Positions 11,473-19,734 of a stretch of 64,000 nucleotides of DNA are shown piece after piece (the stretch's first letter is position 1; each line of letters opens with the position of its first letter). The stretch is taken from positions 992,001-1,056,000 of the forward strand of contig CAVUDW010000002.1 in assembly GCA_963740355.1 (NCBI GenBank). Reading direction: 5' to 3'. The notes under the pieces were generated by a model. That model searched no databases. It was not told the DNA's origin and saw nothing but the letters and a program-made list of their open reading frames with translations. The position numbers and the translations under genes are program-made. Source of the stretch: an uncultured Gemmatimonadaceae bacterium. Lineage in GTDB: Bacteria > Gemmatimonadota > Gemmatimonadetes > Gemmatimonadales > Gemmatimonadaceae.

Positions 11473-11897
11473 GCCGGTTCGTAGGTCGCACTGAGTGTCG
11501 CGTCTTCGGCCACCACGACGCGCGTGACGCGCACACTGGCGGGAAGGCGCGCCTGCACTCGCTCGGCGATGAAGCGCGCCAGTTCCTCACCAGTTGGCAC
11601 GAGTCCGGTCACCTCGTCGAACTCCGCCACATCGAGGTTGATGTTGCGGTGATCGAAGCGCGACCTGACTTCTTCCTGCAACACCTGGTCGAGCAGGCCA
11701 AGATCCACCAGCATGCCCGTCTCGCGCGCCACCGGACCACTCACACTCACATCGCACACGTAGCTGTGGCCGTGGAAGTTCGGACGGGCGCACAGACCAA
11801 ACGTGGCCTCGTTGCGTGCGTCGTCCCAGTCCGGACGTCGATAGCGATGTGCCGCCGCAAAAGACACGCGGCGGGTGAGCGTGGTGCGACCGCTCAT
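11469..11897 (-). CDS. 6-pyruvoyl-tetrahydropterin synthase / QueD family (C-X5-HGH, PTPS-II-like)
   Basis: FAAAH, CARPNFHGHSY, FDH, PTGEELA. Confidence 0.88.
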   Translation of the reverse strand: MSGRTTLTRRVSFAAAHRYRRPDWDDARNEATFGLCARPNFHGHSYVCDVSVSGPVARETGMLVDLGLLDQVLQEEVRSRFDHRNINLDVAEFDEVTGLVPTGEELARFIAERVQARLPASVRVTRVVVAEDATLSATYEPA

Positions 11898-12607
11898 CGC
11901 CGTCCGATCTCGCGGACGAGGCCGAGCGTGAGCATCGTGTTGCGTGTCCAGCTGTTCTTCGTGTTCGGGCCGACGAGACGCGGGATGTTCGGCGTCGAAT
12001 CGCGAAAGGTGGCCGGATACGGGACGCTGTAGAAACGATTCGTCATGTCGGCGCGCAGCGTCCAGCGCGACTTGAGCGGTGCGTACTTGAGTCCAAGACC
12101 CACGCTCGGTGCGAACCGGCTGCCGAACTTGAAGAGCGACGAGTCGGTGATCGCCTTCGAGTCGTTGGCGATGCCAGCGCCGAACGAGACGCTCGGCATC
12201 AGTGAGTGCCAGCTCTTGTGACCCGTGAGCATCAGCGTCAATGCGGCGTCGAGAAACCAGAGCGGCTCCGAGACCGTGGCGCCGACACGATTGGCCAGCG
12301 GCAAGCCGGGCTGCAACACATCGCGGCTCGAGGACTGTCTGACGAGACTCGAGGTGAACGACAACGGACTGGCGCCCAGCGGCACGTCGTAGCGCACACC
12401 GATCCCGATGCCACCGCGCGGCGCAGCGCCAACCTTGTCCTTGCCGCCGAAGCTCGGACCGACGATGAGACTGATCCCCTGCCGCTTCTCGACGTCGCGG
12501 AACGGGCTGTTTTCTGGCGTGCTGCCGACTTGCGCCTGCAATGCGGTGCTGCCGCTCACCGAGAGTCCTGCGACGATGCCCGCCACCATCAGCTGTCGAG
12601 CGTTCAT
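11894..12607 (-). CDS. Secreted protein, probable outer-membrane beta-barrel
   Basis: Signal peptide ending LQA; alternating amphipathic strands. Confidence 0.6.
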   Translation of the reverse strand: MNARQLMVAGIVAGLSVSGSTALQAQVGSTPENSPFRDVEKRQGISLIVGPSFGGKDKVGAAPRGGIGIGVRYDVPLGASPLSFTSSLVRQSSSRDVLQPGLPLANRVGATVSEPLWFLDAALTLMLTGHKSWHSLMPSVSFGAGIANDSKAITDSSLFKFGSRFAPSVGLGLKYAPLKSRWTLRADMTNRFYSVPYPATFRDSTPNIPRLVGPNTKNSWTRNTMLTLGLVREIGRR

Positions 12608-14172
12608 GCCGGCACCGAAGCTTGGCGCAGCGAACGCCCCGACATCTCGGGCGGGATCACGAGACCGAGCATGTCGATCACGGTCGGGCCAACATCACAC
12701 AGGGCACCGCCGGCACGCAGCGGAACGACGCCATCAGGATCGATGATCAACAAGGGAACTGGATTGGTAGTGTGTGCCGTGTGCGGTGCCCCGGTGACCG
12801 GGTCCACCATCACATCGGCGTTGCCATGATCGGCGGTGAAGATGACGCGTGCGCCGCCAACTTCGGCTGCCGTCACGATGCGTCCGATGCAGGCGTCGAC
12901 GGCTTGCACGGCGGCGATGGCGGCCGGGAGCGACCCAGTGTGCCCGACCATGTCGCAGTTGGCGAAGTTGCAGAGCATGAAGTCGTACTTCCGCGTTTCG
13001 AGCGCCTCCACCAGGCCGTCGCAAATGCCCGAGGCACTCATCTCCGGCTGCAGGTCGTAGGTGGCGACCTTGGGGCTCGGCACCATGCGACGCTCTTCGC
13101 CGGCGAAGGGTGTTTCGCGCCCGCCGTTGAAGAAGAAGGTCACGTGCGGATACTTCTCGGTCTCGGCGGTGCGCAGCTGCGTCATGCCAGCGTTCGCGAT
13201 CACTTCGCCGACCATGTTGGTGAGCTGCGTGGCCGGAAACGCGACCGGATAGGTAAATGTGGGGTCGTATTCCATCATCGTCGTGACGGATAGACGCGGC
13301 CGACCGTCAATGTTGAAGCCGGCGAACGTCGGCGATGTCAGTGCATCGCAGAGTTGCCGCATGCGATCGCTACGGAAGTTGAAGCAGATCACCACGTCGC
13401 CGTCGGCCAGCCGCGGCGTCAGCGCACCGGACGCATCATGCAACACGAACGGTTCGATGAATTCGTCGGTGGTGCCAGCGGCGTAGGCGGCGCTGAGAGA
13501 GGCGGCGACGGTGTCTGCGGTCGTCTCGGTCCCGACGCCATCGACCATCGCGCGGTACCACTTTTCGGTGCGCGGCCAGCGATGATCCCGATCCATGCCG
13601 AAGTAGCGCCCGCCGAGAGTGGACAACACCGCGCGGCCTGGGTATTTGGCGATCTCGTGCTGCAGCTCCGCCAGAAATCCGCGGCCCGAGTTGGGCGGCG
13701 TGTCACGACCGTCGAGCATGCCGTGCACGGCCACCGACTTCACACCTTCGCGGTTGGCCAGGTCGAGCAAGGCGAACAGGTGCTTGTCGAGCGCGTGCAC
13801 ACCACCGTGTCCGAGCAGGCCGATCAGGTGCAGGGTCACACCACGCGCGGCGGCGTCGCGACAGGCCGCCACCAGCGCTGGATTGGCGAAGAACGCGCCG
13901 GTCTCGATCGCAGCGCCGATGCGTACCAGATCCTGCTCCACGACGCGGCCAGCACCGAGGTTCATGTGGCCGACTTCGCTGTTGCCCATCTGACCTTCCG
14001 GCAGCCCGACCCGACGCCCGCTCGCCTCCAGCAGCGTATGCGGGACCGAGCCCATCAGTCGATCCCAGTTCGGCGTCTCGGCGAGGGCAATGGCGTTCGC
14101 CGTGGCGTCATCGCGGTATCCCCAGCCATCGAGAACGACGAGGCAGACAGGTCGGACGGAATGCGAAGGCAT
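12604..14172 (-). CDS. gpmI: 2,3-bisphosphoglycerate-independent phosphoglycerate mutase
   Basis: LDGWG, GQMGNSEVGH, AETEKYPHVTFF, DMVGH, TADHGN. Confidence 0.97.
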   Translation of the reverse strand: MPSHSVRPVCLVVLDGWGYRDDATANAIALAETPNWDRLMGSVPHTLLEASGRRVGLPEGQMGNSEVGHMNLGAGRVVEQDLVRIGAAIETGAFFANPALVAACRDAAARGVTLHLIGLLGHGGVHALDKHLFALLDLANREGVKSVAVHGMLDGRDTPPNSGRGFLAELQHEIAKYPGRAVLSTLGGRYFGMDRDHRWPRTEKWYRAMVDGVGTETTADTVAASLSAAYAAGTTDEFIEPFVLHDASGALTPRLADGDVVICFNFRSDRMRQLCDALTSPTFAGFNIDGRPRLSVTTMMEYDPTFTYPVAFPATQLTNMVGEVIANAGMTQLRTAETEKYPHVTFFFNGGRETPFAGEERRMVPSPKVATYDLQPEMSASGICDGLVEALETRKYDFMLCNFANCDMVGHTGSLPAAIAAVQAVDACIGRIVTAAEVGGARVIFTADHGNADVMVDPVTGAPHTAHTTNPVPLLIIDPDGVVPLRAGGALCDVGPTVIDMLGLVIPPEMSGRSLRQASVPA

Positions 14173-14208
14173 GGATGCAGGGTGGGGCAGGGTAGTAATG
14201 TCGTGAGT

Positions 14209-14877
14209 ATGACGTCTGCTGAATGTACCCCCCGCCGGTGGGCACTACCATCGAAAGCGCAACGCTCCGTCGCTGCCTACACGCTTGCCAGCCTCGTGTT
14301 TCTTCTGGGGGCCGCCAATCTGGCGGCTCAGAAGCCAGCAGACTCGACCGTGGCTCGCGCGGTCAGTCCCGCCACCATCCCGCTCCGGCCGGCCGCGAAG
14401 GCTGAGTTCCGGACGGCACCAGATGGCGCGGTGATGGGTACTGTCGTGACGCCCGGCACCGTCATTCCCCTGGCGAGGGAACGGGGGTGGGTGCGGGTGC
14501 GGATGGAAGGGTGGATCAAGGAGTCTGACCTTCTGCCCGTGGATTCCTCCCTCCGGACACAGCTCAGCGCGGCAGACCTGCGCGCCGATCCGGAAGGCTC
14601 CAAGGGGAAGCTGATTCGCTGGAAGGTCGAGGTGCTCGCGTTCCAGAAGGCGGATGCATTGCGTCGCGACCTTCAGACGGGCGAGCCGTACCTGCTGGCG
14701 CGTGGGCCGGCCGGCGAGAATGCGATGTTGTACCTGGCGTTGCCTCAGTCACTGGTCAATGACGCCAAGGCCATCGTTCCCCTGACCGTGATTCAGATCA
14801 TCGCGCGCGTCCGCACCGGACGCTCCGCACCTACGAACGTGCCTATCCTCGACGTCGAGGCGATTACACCACCATGA
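14209..14877 (+). CDS. Secreted protein with SH3b-like domain and probable OB-fold C-terminal domain
   Basis: Signal/TM segment; GWVRVRMEGWIKESDL (SH3b-like); LSAADLRADPEGSKGKLIRW. Confidence 0.65.
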   Translation: MTSAECTPRRWALPSKAQRSVAAYTLASLVFLLGAANLAAQKPADSTVARAVSPATIPLRPAAKAEFRTAPDGAVMGTVVTPGTVIPLARERGWVRVRMEGWIKESDLLPVDSSLRTQLSAADLRADPEGSKGKLIRWKVEVLAFQKADALRRDLQTGEPYLLARGPAGENAMLYLALPQSLVNDAKAIVPLTVIQIIARVRTGRSAPTNVPILDVEAITPP

Positions 14878-15515
14878 GCGGCGACAGTCCTGACAGCCGA
14901 TTGCGACCCACGGTCGGCTTCATCATCACCGGGCTTCTGATCGCTGCCGCCGTGGCTGCGGTGCCGATGCTGCGCGCCGAGCGCGAAAGCCTCCGGCAAG
15001 AGGCGGCGCTGCTCCGGTCGCAGAGGTCGACGGCCACGGTCACGCTCGATTCGCTGCGCAAGGCCGCGGACGTCGAGTCGGCGACCCTCGCGCTCGAGCT
15101 AGCGCGCGCCAACGCGCGTGCGGAACCGAAGCTGCACCTCGTGATCGCCGTCGACAGCGGCACCGTAGCCTTGATGCGCGATGGAATCACGCTGCGCACG
15201 ATGCCGGCCCGTTTTCGCGGGGCCCTTCCGGCACGCGGCACGCAGACGATCTCCAAGATCGCCGAGTCGCCGGTCGCCGCCGATGCGCCGACCGTGGACT
15301 CGCTCGGCAACGCGATCGCCGTGGGTGCGAAGGAGATGAAGGTGGAGCGGGTCACTCTCAGCGATGGCACAGTGATCGAGGGTGGCGATGCGGCGGCAGC
15401 CCTGCTCGGCGGTGTGGAAACCGGTCCTGGTCCTCGCATGATCGTCGTGTCACGTCGCGACTTCGATGCCGTGCGCCCCAACCTGGTGCGTGGCATGAAG
15501 GCGGTGTTGTTCTGA
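14874..15515 (+). CDS. Membrane-anchored YkuD-fold protein lacking the catalytic His/Cys (pseudo-L,D-transpeptidase)
   Basis: TM plus coiled coil; aligns by eye with the downstream LDT; ATGA/TGATG coupling. Confidence 0.65.
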   Translation: MSGDSPDSRLRPTVGFIITGLLIAAAVAAVPMLRAERESLRQEAALLRSQRSTATVTLDSLRKAADVESATLALELARANARAEPKLHLVIAVDSGTVALMRDGITLRTMPARFRGALPARGTQTISKIAESPVAADAPTVDSLGNAIAVGAKEMKVERVTLSDGTVIEGGDAAAALLGGVETGPGPRMIVVSRRDFDAVRPNLVRGMKAVLF

Positions 15516-16369
15516 TGGGCCCCGTGAAGCGATTCCTCACCGCCGGCGGCTGGCTGGCGTGGTGTGCCTCGACGCTGGCGCTGGCTGGCGTTGGCGTGGC
15601 CGCGTTCGAAGGGTTTCAGACGGTGACGGCGATGCAGGCGCGTGATGCGGCGCGTGATGCCGGGGCCCGCGAGCTGAACGAGTTGCAAGCGGCGCGCGTG
15701 CGAGTCACGGCCCTCCTTGATTCGACGCGTCGTGCCCGAACCAGTGGCCTGCCAACCGGGGTGGAGCCATACGTGATCGTCAGCCTCGCTGACAACCGCC
15801 TCTGGGTGCGCGATGGTGAGACGGAATTGTTCACGACGCGCGTTGCCAGTGGCAGCGGGCGCACTCTGATCGGCGCTGGTCGAGACCAGAAGTACAAGTT
15901 CGACACACCGCGCGGGAAGCTGACGGTGAAGAGCAAGGAGACCTCGCCGGCGTGGGTGCCACCGGATTGGCATTTCGTCGAGCAGGCTGGCAAGAAAAAA
16001 CTCGGCATCCTGCGCATGAAGCGTGGGCAGATCATCCAGGTATCCGACGGTGTCATCACGACGCGCGGCAGCGATGTGATCAAGCGATATCGGGATGGCT
16101 CGGTGCAGGCACTCACGGCCACCGACGGCAAGGAGCTGGTCGCTGGCGGGCGGATCATCATCCCGCCCGGCGGCACCAACGCTCGACGCTACAAGGAGAT
16201 TCTCGGCACGCATCGCCTGAACCTCGGCGATGGATACGCCTTGCATGGCACGAATGCGCCGACGTCGATTGGGCGGAGTGTGAGCCATGGGTGCGTTCGG
16301 TTGCGCAATGAGGACATCGAAACGTTGTATCGCATGATTCCTGTTGGCGCCGCGGTGTACATCTACTGA
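15515..16369 (+). CDS. L,D-transpeptidase (YkuD family)
   Basis: TPRG, P.W.PP, YALHGT...SHGCVRLRNEDI. Confidence 0.93.
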   Translation: MGPVKRFLTAGGWLAWCASTLALAGVGVAAFEGFQTVTAMQARDAARDAGARELNELQAARVRVTALLDSTRRARTSGLPTGVEPYVIVSLADNRLWVRDGETELFTTRVASGSGRTLIGAGRDQKYKFDTPRGKLTVKSKETSPAWVPPDWHFVEQAGKKKLGILRMKRGQIIQVSDGVITTRGSDVIKRYRDGSVQALTATDGKELVAGGRIIIPPGGTNARRYKEILGTHRLNLGDGYALHGTNAPTSIGRSVSHGCVRLRNEDIETLYRMIPVGAAVYIY

Positions 16370-16980
16370 TGCGCTCCGTGATGTGGCGCCGCGCGGCGGT
16401 GATGGCGGTGCTGCTGGCGGCCACCACCGCTTGCTCGTCGGCGCGTGGAAGGCTCTGCCGCGACGTACCGGATCCGGACGAACTGGGCCGACTCGCGACG
16501 GTCACTGATTCGACGGTGGTGGCGATGCGTACCGCCACCGATACGCAACTGACGTCGCTGCGCATCTACCTGCAGTCGGTGCTCAGCCGTGCCGACATGC
16601 TCGATCAGTGTGGACGGGTGTCGACGCCAGCCGACTTGCGAACCGCGGGGTCGATGGCGCTGACGGCCAACTCCCTCGGTCAGGAAGCGGTCGAGCGCGC
16701 GTACCGCTGGTCGCGCCGCGCTGTGGAGGCGGATTCGTCCGACCGTCGCTCATGGCGCGTGATGGCGCATGCGTGGGACCAATTGCAGCTGCTGCAGAAA
16801 CAGCGCCAGTGGTTTGCAACGGTCGTCACCTGTCCCAACACCCTCGAAGGACGCTGCGCAATCGCGCCCATCGACACCACACACGTCACCGACCCGCAGC
16901 GGGCAGAACTCGGACTACGAACCATCGCACAGCAGCGAGAGCGGGTCGACTCGTTGAATCGCGCGCGCGGCCGCCCCTGA
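16369..16980 (+). CDS. Lipoprotein, DUF6624-like C-terminus
   Basis: Lipobox ATTAC; AWDQL...QWFAT...PID...VTDPQRAELGL. Confidence 0.6.
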   Translation: MRSVMWRRAAVMAVLLAATTACSSARGRLCRDVPDPDELGRLATVTDSTVVAMRTATDTQLTSLRIYLQSVLSRADMLDQCGRVSTPADLRTAGSMALTANSLGQEAVERAYRWSRRAVEADSSDRRSWRVMAHAWDQLQLLQKQRQWFATVVTCPNTLEGRCAIAPIDTTHVTDPQRAELGLRTIAQQRERVDSLNRARGRP

Positions 16981-17156: not shown

Positions 17157-18065
17157 ATGACTGGTCGATCAATACTTGCTGGAATGCTGCTCTCGGGCAT
17201 CGCGTCGTGGTTCGCGGCGCCGCCGAGCGAAGCGTATGCGTCGACGTCAGCCGTTCGCGAGCTGTACTCGAGTGCGGACATGGTGGCACTCGACGACTCG
17301 CTGCTCGGGCGCAGCGGAAAGCTGCGAGCCCGGTTCCTGCCGGCACCACAGGCGCGGGAGATGGAACGCGCCATCGGTGCGATGCGGGCGTCCCCTGCTG
17401 AAGCCGGTTTGCGGTCACGTGTCGCCTCGCTGCAGATCGTGCCCATGGTGCCGTTCACGATGAAGGTGCGTGGGTGGATGGGCATGTATCGCATGGGCTA
17501 CTGGCCCGGTGAAAAGCGCGCCGTCAGCAGCGCGTCGTACGACAACCCGCTGGGCTTCATCGAGGTCACGCCGCAGAACGAAGGGCTGCAGATCTCCGAG
17601 CATTTCCGGTTGCGCGACTTCGTGACCAAGGATCAGTCCACCGTCTGGCCCAAGTACGTCGTGCTGCGCGAGGCGCTGATCGACAAGCTCGAGCTGGTGA
17701 TCGAGGAGCTGCAGTTGATGGGATATCCCGTCGAGCACGTGCAGGTGATGAGTGGCTTCCGGCATCCGTTCTACAACGCCCAGGGTGTTGGCAAGGGCGG
17801 ACGGGCACGTGAGAGCAGGCATCAGTACGGCGATGCCTCGGATGTGTTCGTCGACAACAATTACGACGGCATGATGGATGATCTCGACGGCGACGGTCGT
17901 GTCACGATGCTCGACAGCGACCTGATCATTCTGGCCGTCGAGAAAGTCGAGATGGCACATCCGGAGTTGATCGGCGGTATGGGTCGTTATCATGCAACCC
18001 ATGCACACGGACCCTTTGTCCACGTCGACGTCCGCGGAACGCCGGCCCGATGGGGCGGCGCATAA
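17157..18065 (+). CDS. Peptidase M15A family Zn D-Ala-D-Ala/endo-peptidase
   Basis: AGGAG RBS; signal peptide; SEHFRL, SGFR, SRHQYGDASD, FVHVD. Confidence 0.88.
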   Translation: MTGRSILAGMLLSGIASWFAAPPSEAYASTSAVRELYSSADMVALDDSLLGRSGKLRARFLPAPQAREMERAIGAMRASPAEAGLRSRVASLQIVPMVPFTMKVRGWMGMYRMGYWPGEKRAVSSASYDNPLGFIEVTPQNEGLQISEHFRLRDFVTKDQSTVWPKYVVLREALIDKLELVIEELQLMGYPVEHVQVMSGFRHPFYNAQGVGKGGRARESRHQYGDASDVFVDNNYDGMMDDLDGDGRVTMLDSDLIILAVEKVEMAHPELIGGMGRYHATHAHGPFVHVDVRGTPARWGGA

Positions 18066-19734
18066 GCCGACACCGATCGGGCTGATCGGACTCACACTCG
18101 CCGATCCGCTCTACCCCGACGATCGCCAACTCGCCACGCCTCCGCGCACCTGGCGCTACGCCAAGTACGCGATGGCGATTGCGCTGCCGCTTGGCGTGGC
18201 GTTCGCTGCACATCGCATCAGTGAGCCGGAAGGGCTGGACGCAGCGGAAGCACCTTCGGCGAACGCACTCGAATTCGTCACCACGAATGACGGCGCCACG
18301 GCGGCAGGCAGCGCCACGTCGCGACCACCGGCTCGGTCATTCAATGCGTCGTCGTTCGGGCACAGCAACGCGGTGCGGGTGCGCGTCGTGCTTCCGAAGG
18401 ATCCCGTCGTGCTGCCCATCGATTTCGACGGATCGACGGTTGGCGTGCAGGCGCAGTGGATTGGCTTTGATGGCAAGGGCAATGAGCCGCCGATGCCATG
18501 GCCGGAAGCCGGCAAGGTGGTCCGCGCACCGTCTCGTCCAGGCGCCTTCTGGCTGGTCCTCTCGCGCGGTGGATTCGCCGACACCGTCGCCGATCTGGCG
18601 CTGCTGGTTGAACATCCGATGCCGAACTCGATGGCGACGGGCATCAACGGCTATCACATGGGTCGCTGGCCGAAGGCGGCAGATGGCGTGGTGCCGCGTG
18701 GCTTCATCGAAGTCACCGACCGGCTGAGCGACTTTCCACTCTCGCCGCACCTTCGGTTGAGCGACTTCGTCGTGCACGATGCGCAGGACGGCTTCCCGAA
18801 GTATCTGCACGTGCGCGAGTCATTGCTCGACAAGATCGAGCTGGTCGTGGCGGAGATTGCGCAGATGCGTGGCCGGTCGCCGTCCACGGTGAAGCTCAAT
18901 GTGGCGAGTGGTTTCCGCAGCCCGGCGCACAACAATGAAGTGTCGGGCACGGCACAGGACAGTCGCCACATGTACGGTGACGCGGCCGACATTGCGATCG
19001 ACGCCAACAGCGACGGGCGGCTGACCGAGATCGATGCTCGACTGGTCGCCGCGGCGGCCGAGATCGTGGAGCGGAAGTATCCCGACATGGTGGGTGGCAT
19101 CGGCCTCTACATCACGACCGATGGTGCCGGGTGGCCGTACGTGCACATCGACACGCGCGGTCGGCGCGCACGCTGGCGTGGTGGTGTGAAGCGGGGCGGG
19201 GCGGTGGCGATCGATTCGCTGCCGGCTGACGCCTCGTTCGATTCGTCCGTCGCGAAGCCTGCCGCGATCACGCCGGCCTCGATGCCGACGCCGATGTCTG
19301 CTCCGGCCCTGGCGCCGACCGTCGGGCCCGCGGTGGCGCCGACCTCGTCGGCCACGCCCGCGCCGATCGTGGCAGGCCCCACCATCGCCGCACCGAAGGT
19401 GGTGTTGCCAGCGCCGACCTCGGCGTCACCGGTGCCGGCGAAGTCTGTCGCACCGACCACTGTCGCACCGCGACCTGGCACGGCACGTCCCGCCGCGCGC
19501 ACGACGAGCACACGCACGGCGGTCAAGCGTGCGCCAACAGCGAGGCGCGCGGCAGCCGCGGCGCGCAAGCCGGCTCCCCGCACGTCCAAGCCGCGGACGA
19601 CGGGGCTGATCATGCAGTCGGCGGCCGCGCACTCGCGCTCGACCGTGCGCCCGTCACCAACGACCCCGGCCGCGCGTACTGCAGAAGACCCGTTCGCGAG
19701 TGCCGCGAAGAAGTTCCGGACATCTCGCCCCTGA
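17992..19734 (+). CDS. Second peptidase M15A with Pro/Ala-rich and basic C-terminal tail (start uncertain)
   Basis: TM segment; SPHLRLSDF, SGFR, SRHMYGDAAD, YVHID. Confidence 0.85.
   Translation: MQPMHTDPLSTSTSAERRPDGAAHKPTPIGLIGLTLADPLYPDDRQLATPPRTWRYAKYAMAIALPLGVAFAAHRISEPEGLDAAEAPSANALEFVTTNDGATAAGSATSRPPARSFNASSFGHSNAVRVRVVLPKDPVVLPIDFDGSTVGVQAQWIGFDGKGNEPPMPWPEAGKVVRAPSRPGAFWLVLSRGGFADTVADLALLVEHPMPNSMATGINGYHMGRWPKAADGVVPRGFIEVTDRLSDFPLSPHLRLSDFVVHDAQDGFPKYLHVRESLLDKIELVVAEIAQMRGRSPSTVKLNVASGFRSPAHNNEVSGTAQDSRHMYGDAADIAIDANSDGRLTEIDARLVAAAAEIVERKYPDMVGGIGLYITTDGAGWPYVHIDTRGRRARWRGGVKRGGAVAIDSLPADASFDSSVAKPAAITPASMPTPMSAPALAPTVGPAVAPTSSATPAPIVAGPTIAAPKVVLPAPTSASPVPAKSVAPTTVAPRPGTARPAARTTSTRTAVKRAPTARRAAAAARKPAPRTSKPRTTGLIMQSAAAHSRSTVRPSPTTPAARTAEDPFASAAKKFRTSRP

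Follow-up and report, generated by a model that had tools for sequence, protein, structure and literature searches.

The stretch of DNA analysed here (the window, 64,000 nucleotides corresponding to contig positions 992001-1056000 of the 5.4-Mb genome of an uncultured Gemmatimonadaceae bacterium) carries two overlapping genes, B and C, that suggest the existence of a previously unstudied pair of an enzyme and a dead enzyme in soil bacteria of the Gemmatimonadaceae. C looks like a live L,D-transpeptidase of the YkuD family, a group of cell-wall enzymes, and B is very probably a dead YkuD paralogue of such an L,D-transpeptidase. The best explanation of the observations as a whole, and in our judgement probably the right one, is that B is a pseudo-L,D-transpeptidase acting as a non-catalytic subunit beside C. 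The two genes lie in a run of four (A to D), beyond which are found two genes for M15 peptidases (E and F); the coordinates of all features are given in Table 1.

The assignment of C is the simpler of the two. Its match to the Pfam YkuD model (PF03734) scores 81.9 bits against a cut-off of 23.4 and covers residues 85-283, with an active site made up of His244 (16244-16246) and a Ser-His-Gly-Cys motif at residues 257-260 (16283-16294). His244, Ser257, His258, Gly259, Cys260 and Arg262 are invariant in 13 C orthologues, and in the SHGCVRLRNxDI segment the C profile finds solved L,D-transpeptidases of enterobacteria and Bacillus (4lzh, E 6e-16). By score and motif, C is a regular member of the family that includes B. 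subtilis YkuD (1y7m), M. tuberculosis LdtMt1 and LdtMt2, and E. coli ErfK, YbiS, YcfS and YnhG. The type of product that it would form (3-3 cross-link or protein attachment) is not readable from the sequence.

B, taken alone, gives little away. No Pfam or NCBIfam family is assigned to it, the window protein has no YkuD match at E <= 1, and a single one of 27 members of the B family matches the Pfam YkuD model, at an E value of 0.011 that falls short of the Pfam gathering cut-off. The same is true of its relatives, as none of the 113 homologues of near-equal length has a precomputed Pfam domain. A BLASTP comparison of B with C yields no significant match (best E 0.52, in the helical part) and is thus blind at the level of the pair, so that the alignment of the two proteins made by eye in the initial annotation could not be justified from the pair alone. 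The relationship does emerge when families are compared. Over their whole length, the B family (27 diverse members) and C (13 orthologues) match in hhalign with 93.4% probability (E 2.6e-7) across 201 columns, spanning anchor, stalk and domain. Both hhalign and MAFFT, blind to the alignment made by eye, independently reproduced it, pairing (B first) ARGTQTI with PRGKLTV, RVTLSDGTVIEG with RLNLGDGYALHG and, towards the C-terminus, IVVSRRDFDAVRPNLVRGMKAVLF with VRLRNEDIETLYRMIPVGAAVYIY. MAFFT on B and C sequences matched the B domain to the C domain over its whole length, the pairs including LHLxVAVDSG with PYIVVSIAD, PRG with PRG, WEVPxWVY with AWVPPDWHY, GGTxIY with GDGYxLHG and PGxIR with HGCVR. 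The link can also be made from single sequences, since a tblastn search with the C protein of the window reaches the B orthologues of two other loci (L017, residues 230-284, E 1.15e-4; L039, residues 86-157, E 6.2e-5, in frame within the B open reading frame (ORF)). The B profile, for its part, matches nine C-type ORFs with E values of 1.7e-8 to 6.9e-6; against the sequences of the PDB it produced chance-level matches alone (best E 0.055, to a ParB nuclease).

The predicted structure leads to the same family. An AlphaFold model of B, built from the 27-row alignment, has a mean predicted local distance difference test score (pLDDT) of 86.8. Foldseek finds 54 matches to it in the PDB at E <= 0.001, the best being 1y7m (E 1e-5); the 39 listed, spread over ranks 1-50, are without exception L,D-transpeptidases or YkuD. 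In VIA-align, 83 chains reach a Z of at least 8, with nothing but L,D-transpeptidases and YkuD-fold proteins among the 50 entries listed; Z values of 14.0-14.6 are obtained for 4lpq, 4jmn and 1y7m (for 4lpq, Z 14.6 with a root-mean-square deviation (rmsd) of 1.8 Å over 102 residues), the matched range in the model being residues 81-213. The YkuD fold that had been proposed for B from the letters of the sequence is thus found by profile-profile comparison and by Foldseek on the predicted structure, and B is predicted to adopt the beta-sandwich fold of the YkuD catalytic domain.

This fold is no longer accompanied by the chemistry of the family. It had been claimed that the catalytic His of B has become Glu, that the SHGC motif is gone and that the protein has no Cys, and the mapping of residues agrees: Glu169 (15378-15380) occupies the column of His244 of C, and Pro185-Gly186-Pro187 (15426-15434) that of His258-Gly259-Cys260, in a protein with zero Cys and one His (H88). 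To see how general this is, residues were counted by column over 157 unique B sequences aligned to the family profile, 114 of them from the clade of the window and 43 more distant. His is absent from the catalytic His column in all 157 sequences, its place being taken by Glu in 98 of the 114 close sequences and by Tyr in 34 of the 43 distant ones. Cys is found neither in the catalytic Cys column (0/157) nor anywhere in the B domain (0/157). The Cys column holds Pro in 97 of the 114 close sequences; among the 43 distant ones it is Ala in 16, Ser in 14 and Gly in 3, with other residues in the rest. P, A, S, G, T, N and others are seen overall, and because the column varies in this way no substitute nucleophile is conserved. 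B is also devoid of the lid-like insert of ~55-70 residues that C has between PPDWH and the LGDGY strand. Compared with the YkuD family at large, B therefore has the fold in common and differs in being without both catalytic residues and the insert, and in scoring under the Pfam model.

Could B still be an enzyme that works through other residues, for instance a Ser nucleophile as in a Legionella YafK-family protein? There is Ser at the Cys column in 14 of the 43 distant members, and serine-dependent hydrolysis of beta-lactams on a YkuD scaffold is described in the accessible part of one report (PMC13400389), but a column that ranges from Pro to Ala, Ser and Gly, the missing His in 157 of 157 sequences and the deletion of the lid-like insert make this highly improbable. 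That B is merely a duplicate decaying without function is harder still to believe. Within the genus B is the second most diverged protein, with an identity of 63-65% vs 75-77% for C and 80-86% for A (D alone is more diverged, 53-56%), as expected from decay; against this, its reading frame is intact, no internal stop is present among the matches listed, its length is constant, it occurs in two families of the class, it has been retained in a gene fusion described below, and thirteen columns (D94, S95, R102, R108, G186, D196 and N203 among them) do not vary across 27 diverse members. B is a pseudo-enzyme that has been conserved and not a copy in decay.

The origin of B can be looked for in the same genome, which contains five YkuD-type ORFs, the four besides C being large and carrying RRDxSHGC motifs. 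With the B profile, C scores 13.1 bits and the other four at most 1.6 bits. These scores, along with the presence of WxVPxW in both B and C and their identical layout of anchor, stalk and domain, point to a duplication of a C-type gene from which B would have been derived.

The distribution and the genetic context of B were followed in samples of genomes, in which absence means not found among those searched. In 26 cases a match to B at E <= 0.001 was found in a library of 1.84 billion representatives, and the named sources of the homologues of these proteins are Gemmatimonadaceae or Gemmatimonadota. A search with the single protein gave matches in 67 of 100 other genomes of the Gemmatimonadaceae, and a profile search of 300 other genomes of the phylum found B in 52 of 69 genomes of family f1, in three of four of family f8 (same class) and in none of 227 genomes of ten other families. 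A first scan of contigs with the single B protein had returned 360 pattern matches, none of which was confirmed. One 213-amino-acid homologue of B (P0007) is named 'glucose/arabinose dehydrogenase' by one source and looks misannotated. Outside the phylum, an Atlas search with B, based on language-model features, retrieved a cluster of 236-amino-acid proteins from Acidobacteriota (score 0.90), 18% of which carry YkuD and which may represent an analogous degenerate YkuD family in another phylum.

Wherever B is found, C is found next to it. In a first set, consisting of the loci of 35 other genomes (34 usable, as the contig of G063 ends inside B), an ORF of the C family follows B on the same strand, 2-179 nucleotides away as measured from aligned ends, or is fused to it, in all 34 genomes; 33 of the 34 have SHGC, and the contig of the last one (G088) ends before the motif. 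A second set comprises 80 further loci from named public metagenome-assembled genomes, whose species probably overlap those of the first set and which were recovered with a single peptide pattern that is characteristic of the form in the Gemmatimonadaceae and blind to distant forms. C follows B in 77 of these 80 loci, the remaining three ending 228-726 nucleotides after B, and SHGC is present in 76 of the 77 C's, one locus ending before the motif; in those with at least 1 kb downstream, an SHGC-bearing C comes directly after B in 76 of 76. B without C was never seen among the loci examined. Of five near-complete genomes in which B is missing, three (G002, G015 and G051) have no C-type enzyme either; the other two are considered below. 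Some of the genomes used are unpublished, namely G007 (one row of the B and C alignments and one of the 34 synteny genomes), G183 (one of the three f8 positives) and G033 and G034 (single-protein search only), and no claim depends on unpublished genomes alone.

The other neighbours are less faithful to the pair. E follows C in 75 of the 80 loci of the second set, the other five having at most 1094 nucleotides after B, and is present in all 75 loci with at least 1802 nucleotides downstream of B; A is present in 44 of the 80 and D in none. The gene order is mutase (minus strand)-A-B-C-E in 33 loci and mutase (minus strand)-B-C-E in 31. In family f8 (L038:4032-5704 and L039), the B-C pair occurs without the mutase gene, A or E. 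The B proteins of f8 are closer to the live enzyme, with Tyr at the His column and KPGG at SHGC. The core that does not vary is B-C, with E as a neighbour across the family, A as an option and D as a local addition. The initial annotation had seen in A to D a four-gene module: its pairing of B with C is conserved across both sets, its inclusion of A and D is not borne out, and it left out E, the conserved M15 neighbour.

The constancy of E raises the possibility that the partner of B is this peptidase and not C, with B regulating it or shielding against it, as a decoy on 3-3 cross-links, an inhibitor or an activator. This would fit the position of E after C in every locus with enough sequence and the fact that MepK, which E resembles, is the L,D-specific endopeptidase of E. 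coli (according to the accessible part of a 2025 review, PMC12729407). We nevertheless consider it very unlikely, as the B-C pairs of f8 have no E-like gene within 8-10 kb (L038, L039), the 176-nucleotide gap between D and E in the window suggests a separate transcription unit, and the one protein to which B has been fused is C, not E.

This fusion is found in genus g17 (two genomes, G017 and G088, with 82% identity between them), where B and C form a single ORF of 388 amino acids (L023:2248-3414 in G017, L019:1486-2319 in G088). It consists of the anchor, stalk and dead domain of B ending in VYFY, a 14-residue linker and the catalytic domain of C, whose His and SHGC are intact. The anchor and stalk of C itself are gone, which marks a genuine fusion of genes as opposed to the loss of a stop codon. 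When the fusion was aligned with B rows in MAFFT, these rows fell on the second, live domain, which shows the homology once more. No homologue longer than B was found at E <= 0.001, which is weak evidence, the g17 fusion having come up by another route. Fusions of this kind are a classical hint that two proteins work together, in this case B and C.

Both proteins have an N-terminal membrane anchor followed by a stalk of ~53-55 residues. In the model of B, anchor and stalk form a single long helix, with block pLDDT values of 85-96 over residues 11-90, and the most hydrophobic 19-residue window has a mean Kyte-Doolittle value of 2.33. The length of the stalk was measured, crudely, from the end of this most hydrophobic window to the first strand of the domain, in the 61 loci in which both patterns could be located (of 116 with at least one). 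The medians are 53 residues for B (range 50-58) and 55 for C (mostly 51-58), equal lengths that fit two heads held at the same height. As for the anchors themselves, transmembrane helices are, in the part of the 2025 review (PMC12729407) available to us, a feature mostly of Gram-positive L,D-transpeptidases.

A protein with a long stalk, a retained fold and lost chemistry could also be an independent head for binding to the wall or spacing from it, for example a tether between inner membrane and wall, co-expressed with C for the same process. Non-enzymatic scaffolding has been proposed for the L,D-transpeptidase LdtJ of Acinetobacter (10.1101/2025.06.19.660527, seen in part). The Arg two positions after the Cys (HGCxR), which is said to be conserved in transpeptidases in the available part of the review (PMC12729407), is retained in 33 of the 43 distant B members, with Val191 in the B of the window. 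An independent B seems unlikely to us all the same: B never occurs apart from C (34/34 and 76/76), and the replacement of the anchor and stalk of C by B in g17 is hard to explain if the two proteins act separately.

We infer instead, with a little more confidence than doubt, that B and C work as a unit, any particular role for B being less certain. Produced from overlapping genes, the two would make up a single unit at the periplasmic side of the inner membrane, their dead and live YkuD domains carried next to each other at the height of the peptidoglycan by parallel stalks that are equally long. B might bind a peptide stem or a glycan, or might position, stabilise or gate C, and C would form an L,D bond, either a 3-3 cross-link or an attachment of protein to peptidoglycan. 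E, in its resemblance to the L,D-endopeptidase MepK, could cut such bonds, making the B-C-E cluster a make-and-break module, to which A would be an optional wall-binding accessory and D a genus-specific addition. In its most explicit form, the proposal is that the L,D-transpeptidase of the Gemmatimonadaceae is an obligate two-subunit machine, with a live and a dead YkuD domain on twin stalks of equal length, the dead subunit binding one of the two peptide stems or gating the active site, and with a dedicated L,D-endopeptidase coupled to the machine to complete a make-and-break module; this is tentative and may well turn out to be wrong.

Several observations weigh against a B-C unit or against parts of it. 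The structure of B is predicted, not solved, and the hhalign match of the globular domains alone is moderate (73.7%, E 2.9e-5, over the last 54 columns, which include the active-site segment); mismatched controls in which the domain was set against the stalk gave E values of 0.27 and 0.59. The Arg after the Cys position is present in none of the 114 sequences of the clade of the window, in which it could play no part in any binding of a stem. The two synteny samples were both drawn from one family, probably with species in common, and adjacency together with one lineage of fusions shows a functional linkage, not a stable complex. C-like enzymes also occur without an adjoining B in the two remaining genomes that have no B: one in G029 (L043) and three in G039 (L042, L044 and L046). 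Across loci the lengths of the two stalks do not co-vary (correlation 0.08), and in a heptad Fourier test the power of B at period 3.5 is 0.41 vs a shuffle mean of 4.42, B peaking at 2.3, and C does best at a period of 3.7. With no correlation in length and with this result of the heptad test, a coiled-coil heterodimer can only be inferred. Of the membrane anchor and coiled coil initially attributed to both B and C, the anchor stands in each and the coiled coil is not confirmed.

Table 1. Features around the B-C gene pair, in window coordinates.
Feature	Position	Strand	Description
Phosphoglycerate mutase gene, cofactor-independent	12604-14172	-	Pfam iPGM_N 6e-70
Gene A	14209-14877	+	222 amino acids; ORF and overlap; accessory gene
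Gene B	14874-15515	+	213 amino acids; putative membrane-anchored pseudo-L,D-transpeptidase, very probably a dead YkuD paralogue
B residues 10-83	14901-15122	+	Single long helix (DSSP of model); predicted hydrophobic anchor ~14-32 and ~50-residue stalk
B residues 85-213	15126-15512	+	Predicted YkuD-fold domain without catalytic dyad (VIA-align range and column counts)
Gene C	15515-16369	+	284 amino acids; predicted membrane-anchored L,D-transpeptidase, active-site motif intact
Gene D	16369-16980	+	203 amino acids; possible lipoprotein, AATTAC before Cys22
Gene E	17157-18065	+	302 amino acids; MepK-like/DUF882 M15 peptidase (putative)
Gene F	17992-19734	+	580 amino acids as listed; putative second M15 peptidase, start uncertain

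In the window, the genes A to D are linked by ATGA and TGATG overlaps, as had been reported and as read again from the sequence: the TGA of A lies within an ATGA at 14874-14877, and the B/C and C/D junctions are both TGATG with one base in common. The G+C content around this four-gene stretch is ~65%. A scan for promoters and terminators was uninformative, finding no terminator and a single promoter-like site that lies on the wrong strand. On the upstream side, the start codons of the mutase gene (minus strand) and of gene A diverge and are 36 nucleotides apart (14173-14208), which implies that both promoters lie inside neighbouring coding regions or that one of the starts is misplaced. Beyond the mutase gene, a 237-amino-acid ORF (11894-12607, minus strand) has a weak match to an outer-membrane beta-barrel family (OMP_b-brl, E 0.012).

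The protein A has a signal-peptide-like N-terminus, an SH3-like beta domain at residues ~59-110 and an OB-like C-terminal domain at ~112-222, in a model with a pLDDT of 75.2 (below 50 for residues 1-55). Residues 112-222 match 49 chains at a Z of at least 8 in VIA-align, all 50 entries listed being of OB type, with a best Z of 9.9 (rmsd 2.4 Å over 85 residues) and a Z of 8.6 for periplasmic YgiW (1nnx); the best Foldseek E value for A is 1.4e-3. The domain is predicted to be a five-stranded OB barrel, an agreement at the level of the fold only, with modest Z values. The SH3 part is weaker in the window, with a Pfam SH3_4 match of 12.6 bits (E 0.12) against a cut-off of 24.1, and recurs among A orthologues, 11 of 21 of which match SH3_4 (best 4.2e-4) and two of 21 SH3_3 (best 4.7e-5); several appear by eye to have extra SH3-like repeats, and in g17 the gene is reduced to the OB-like domain (158 amino acids). 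With OB fold matches and weak but repeated SH3 matches, the label 'SH3/OB' given to A was a fair one. The role of SH3b adaptor that came with it goes with the combination of SH3-like and OB-like domains, though not as a core part of the module, A being present in only 44 of 80 loci.

D has no Pfam family and a weak PilW/TPR match (E 0.0054), and an Atlas search for it gave nothing at 0.9 or above. Its candidate lipobox, AATTAC at residues 17-22, has Thr at -3, which is atypical. The gene is present only in L002 and L003, both from the genus of the window (two of two other genomes of the genus), and, being confined in this way and absent from all 80 loci of the second set, D cannot be the core outer-membrane partner or substrate that the initial annotation had made of it.

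Downstream, E matches Pfam Peptidase_M15_2 (PF05951) with 25.5 bits, just under the cut-off of 27, and NCBIfam MepK with 20 bits (E 5e-4) against a cut-off of 185; an H-x6-D motif can be recognised by eye, followed further on by a His, and compared by sequence with solved structures it has no match at E <= 1. F, a paralogue of E, scores 35.8 bits with Peptidase_M15_3 (PF08291; cut-off 23.2) and 31.9 bits with M15_2 (cut-off 27), is far under the cut-off for NCBIfam MepK, and ends in a Pro/Ala/Thr-rich tail of ~180 residues. Its listed ORF overlaps E by 74 nucleotides, hence the uncertainty about its start. On these scores E and F would fall within the M15/DUF882 group, of which MepK is a member, or at its border.

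Some known systems resemble parts of this arrangement. In E. coli, the degenerate LytM factors EnvC and NlpD activate the amidases AmiA, AmiB and AmiC, so that here too a dead relative of a cell-wall enzyme fold partners a wall enzyme. The fold and the target enzyme are different, however, and these factors are not known to be paralogues of the enzymes that they activate; the comparison does not imply that B is an activator. The ldtD (ycbB) and mepK (ycbK) genes of E. coli, which are adjacent, likewise place an L,D-transpeptidase gene by an M15/DUF882 peptidase gene, as for C and E; the difference is that E matches the MepK model weakly, and no pseudo-enzyme is known at the E. coli locus. For A. 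baumannii LdtJ, the part of the report available proposes a catalysis-independent function for an L,D-transpeptidase protein (10.1101/2025.06.19.660527); LdtJ, though, is an active enzyme whose inactive form was engineered, whereas the dead form described here has a gene of its own, conserved in nature.

We came across no account of a naturally inactive YkuD paralogue that serves an L,D-transpeptidase in the literature searched, the coverage of which did not extend to subscription journals, and term searches of the 2025 review (PMC12729407), as far as its text was accessible, returned no named protein partner or natural inactive paralogue of L,D-transpeptidases. The initial statement that no system with such an organisation had been described is in keeping with this, no counterpart having been found in the searched literature.

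L,D-transpeptidases bypass most beta-lactams, tether outer-membrane proteins to the wall and repair the wall under envelope stress, and their positioning and regulation are largely unknown. More than 100 'hypothetical proteins' without a Pfam domain would, from the evidence on B, be YkuD-fold pseudo-enzymes, and their annotation can be corrected to that effect. If the two-subunit machine were real, it would be the first case of an L,D-transpeptidase with a natural pseudo-enzyme as its partner, much as amidases have the dead LytM factors. A conserved dead paralogue that always precedes the enzyme, and in one lineage is fused to it, offers a natural system in which to see what holds, feeds or switches an L,D-transpeptidase, and cultured Gemmatimonas species could be used for studying the B-C pair.

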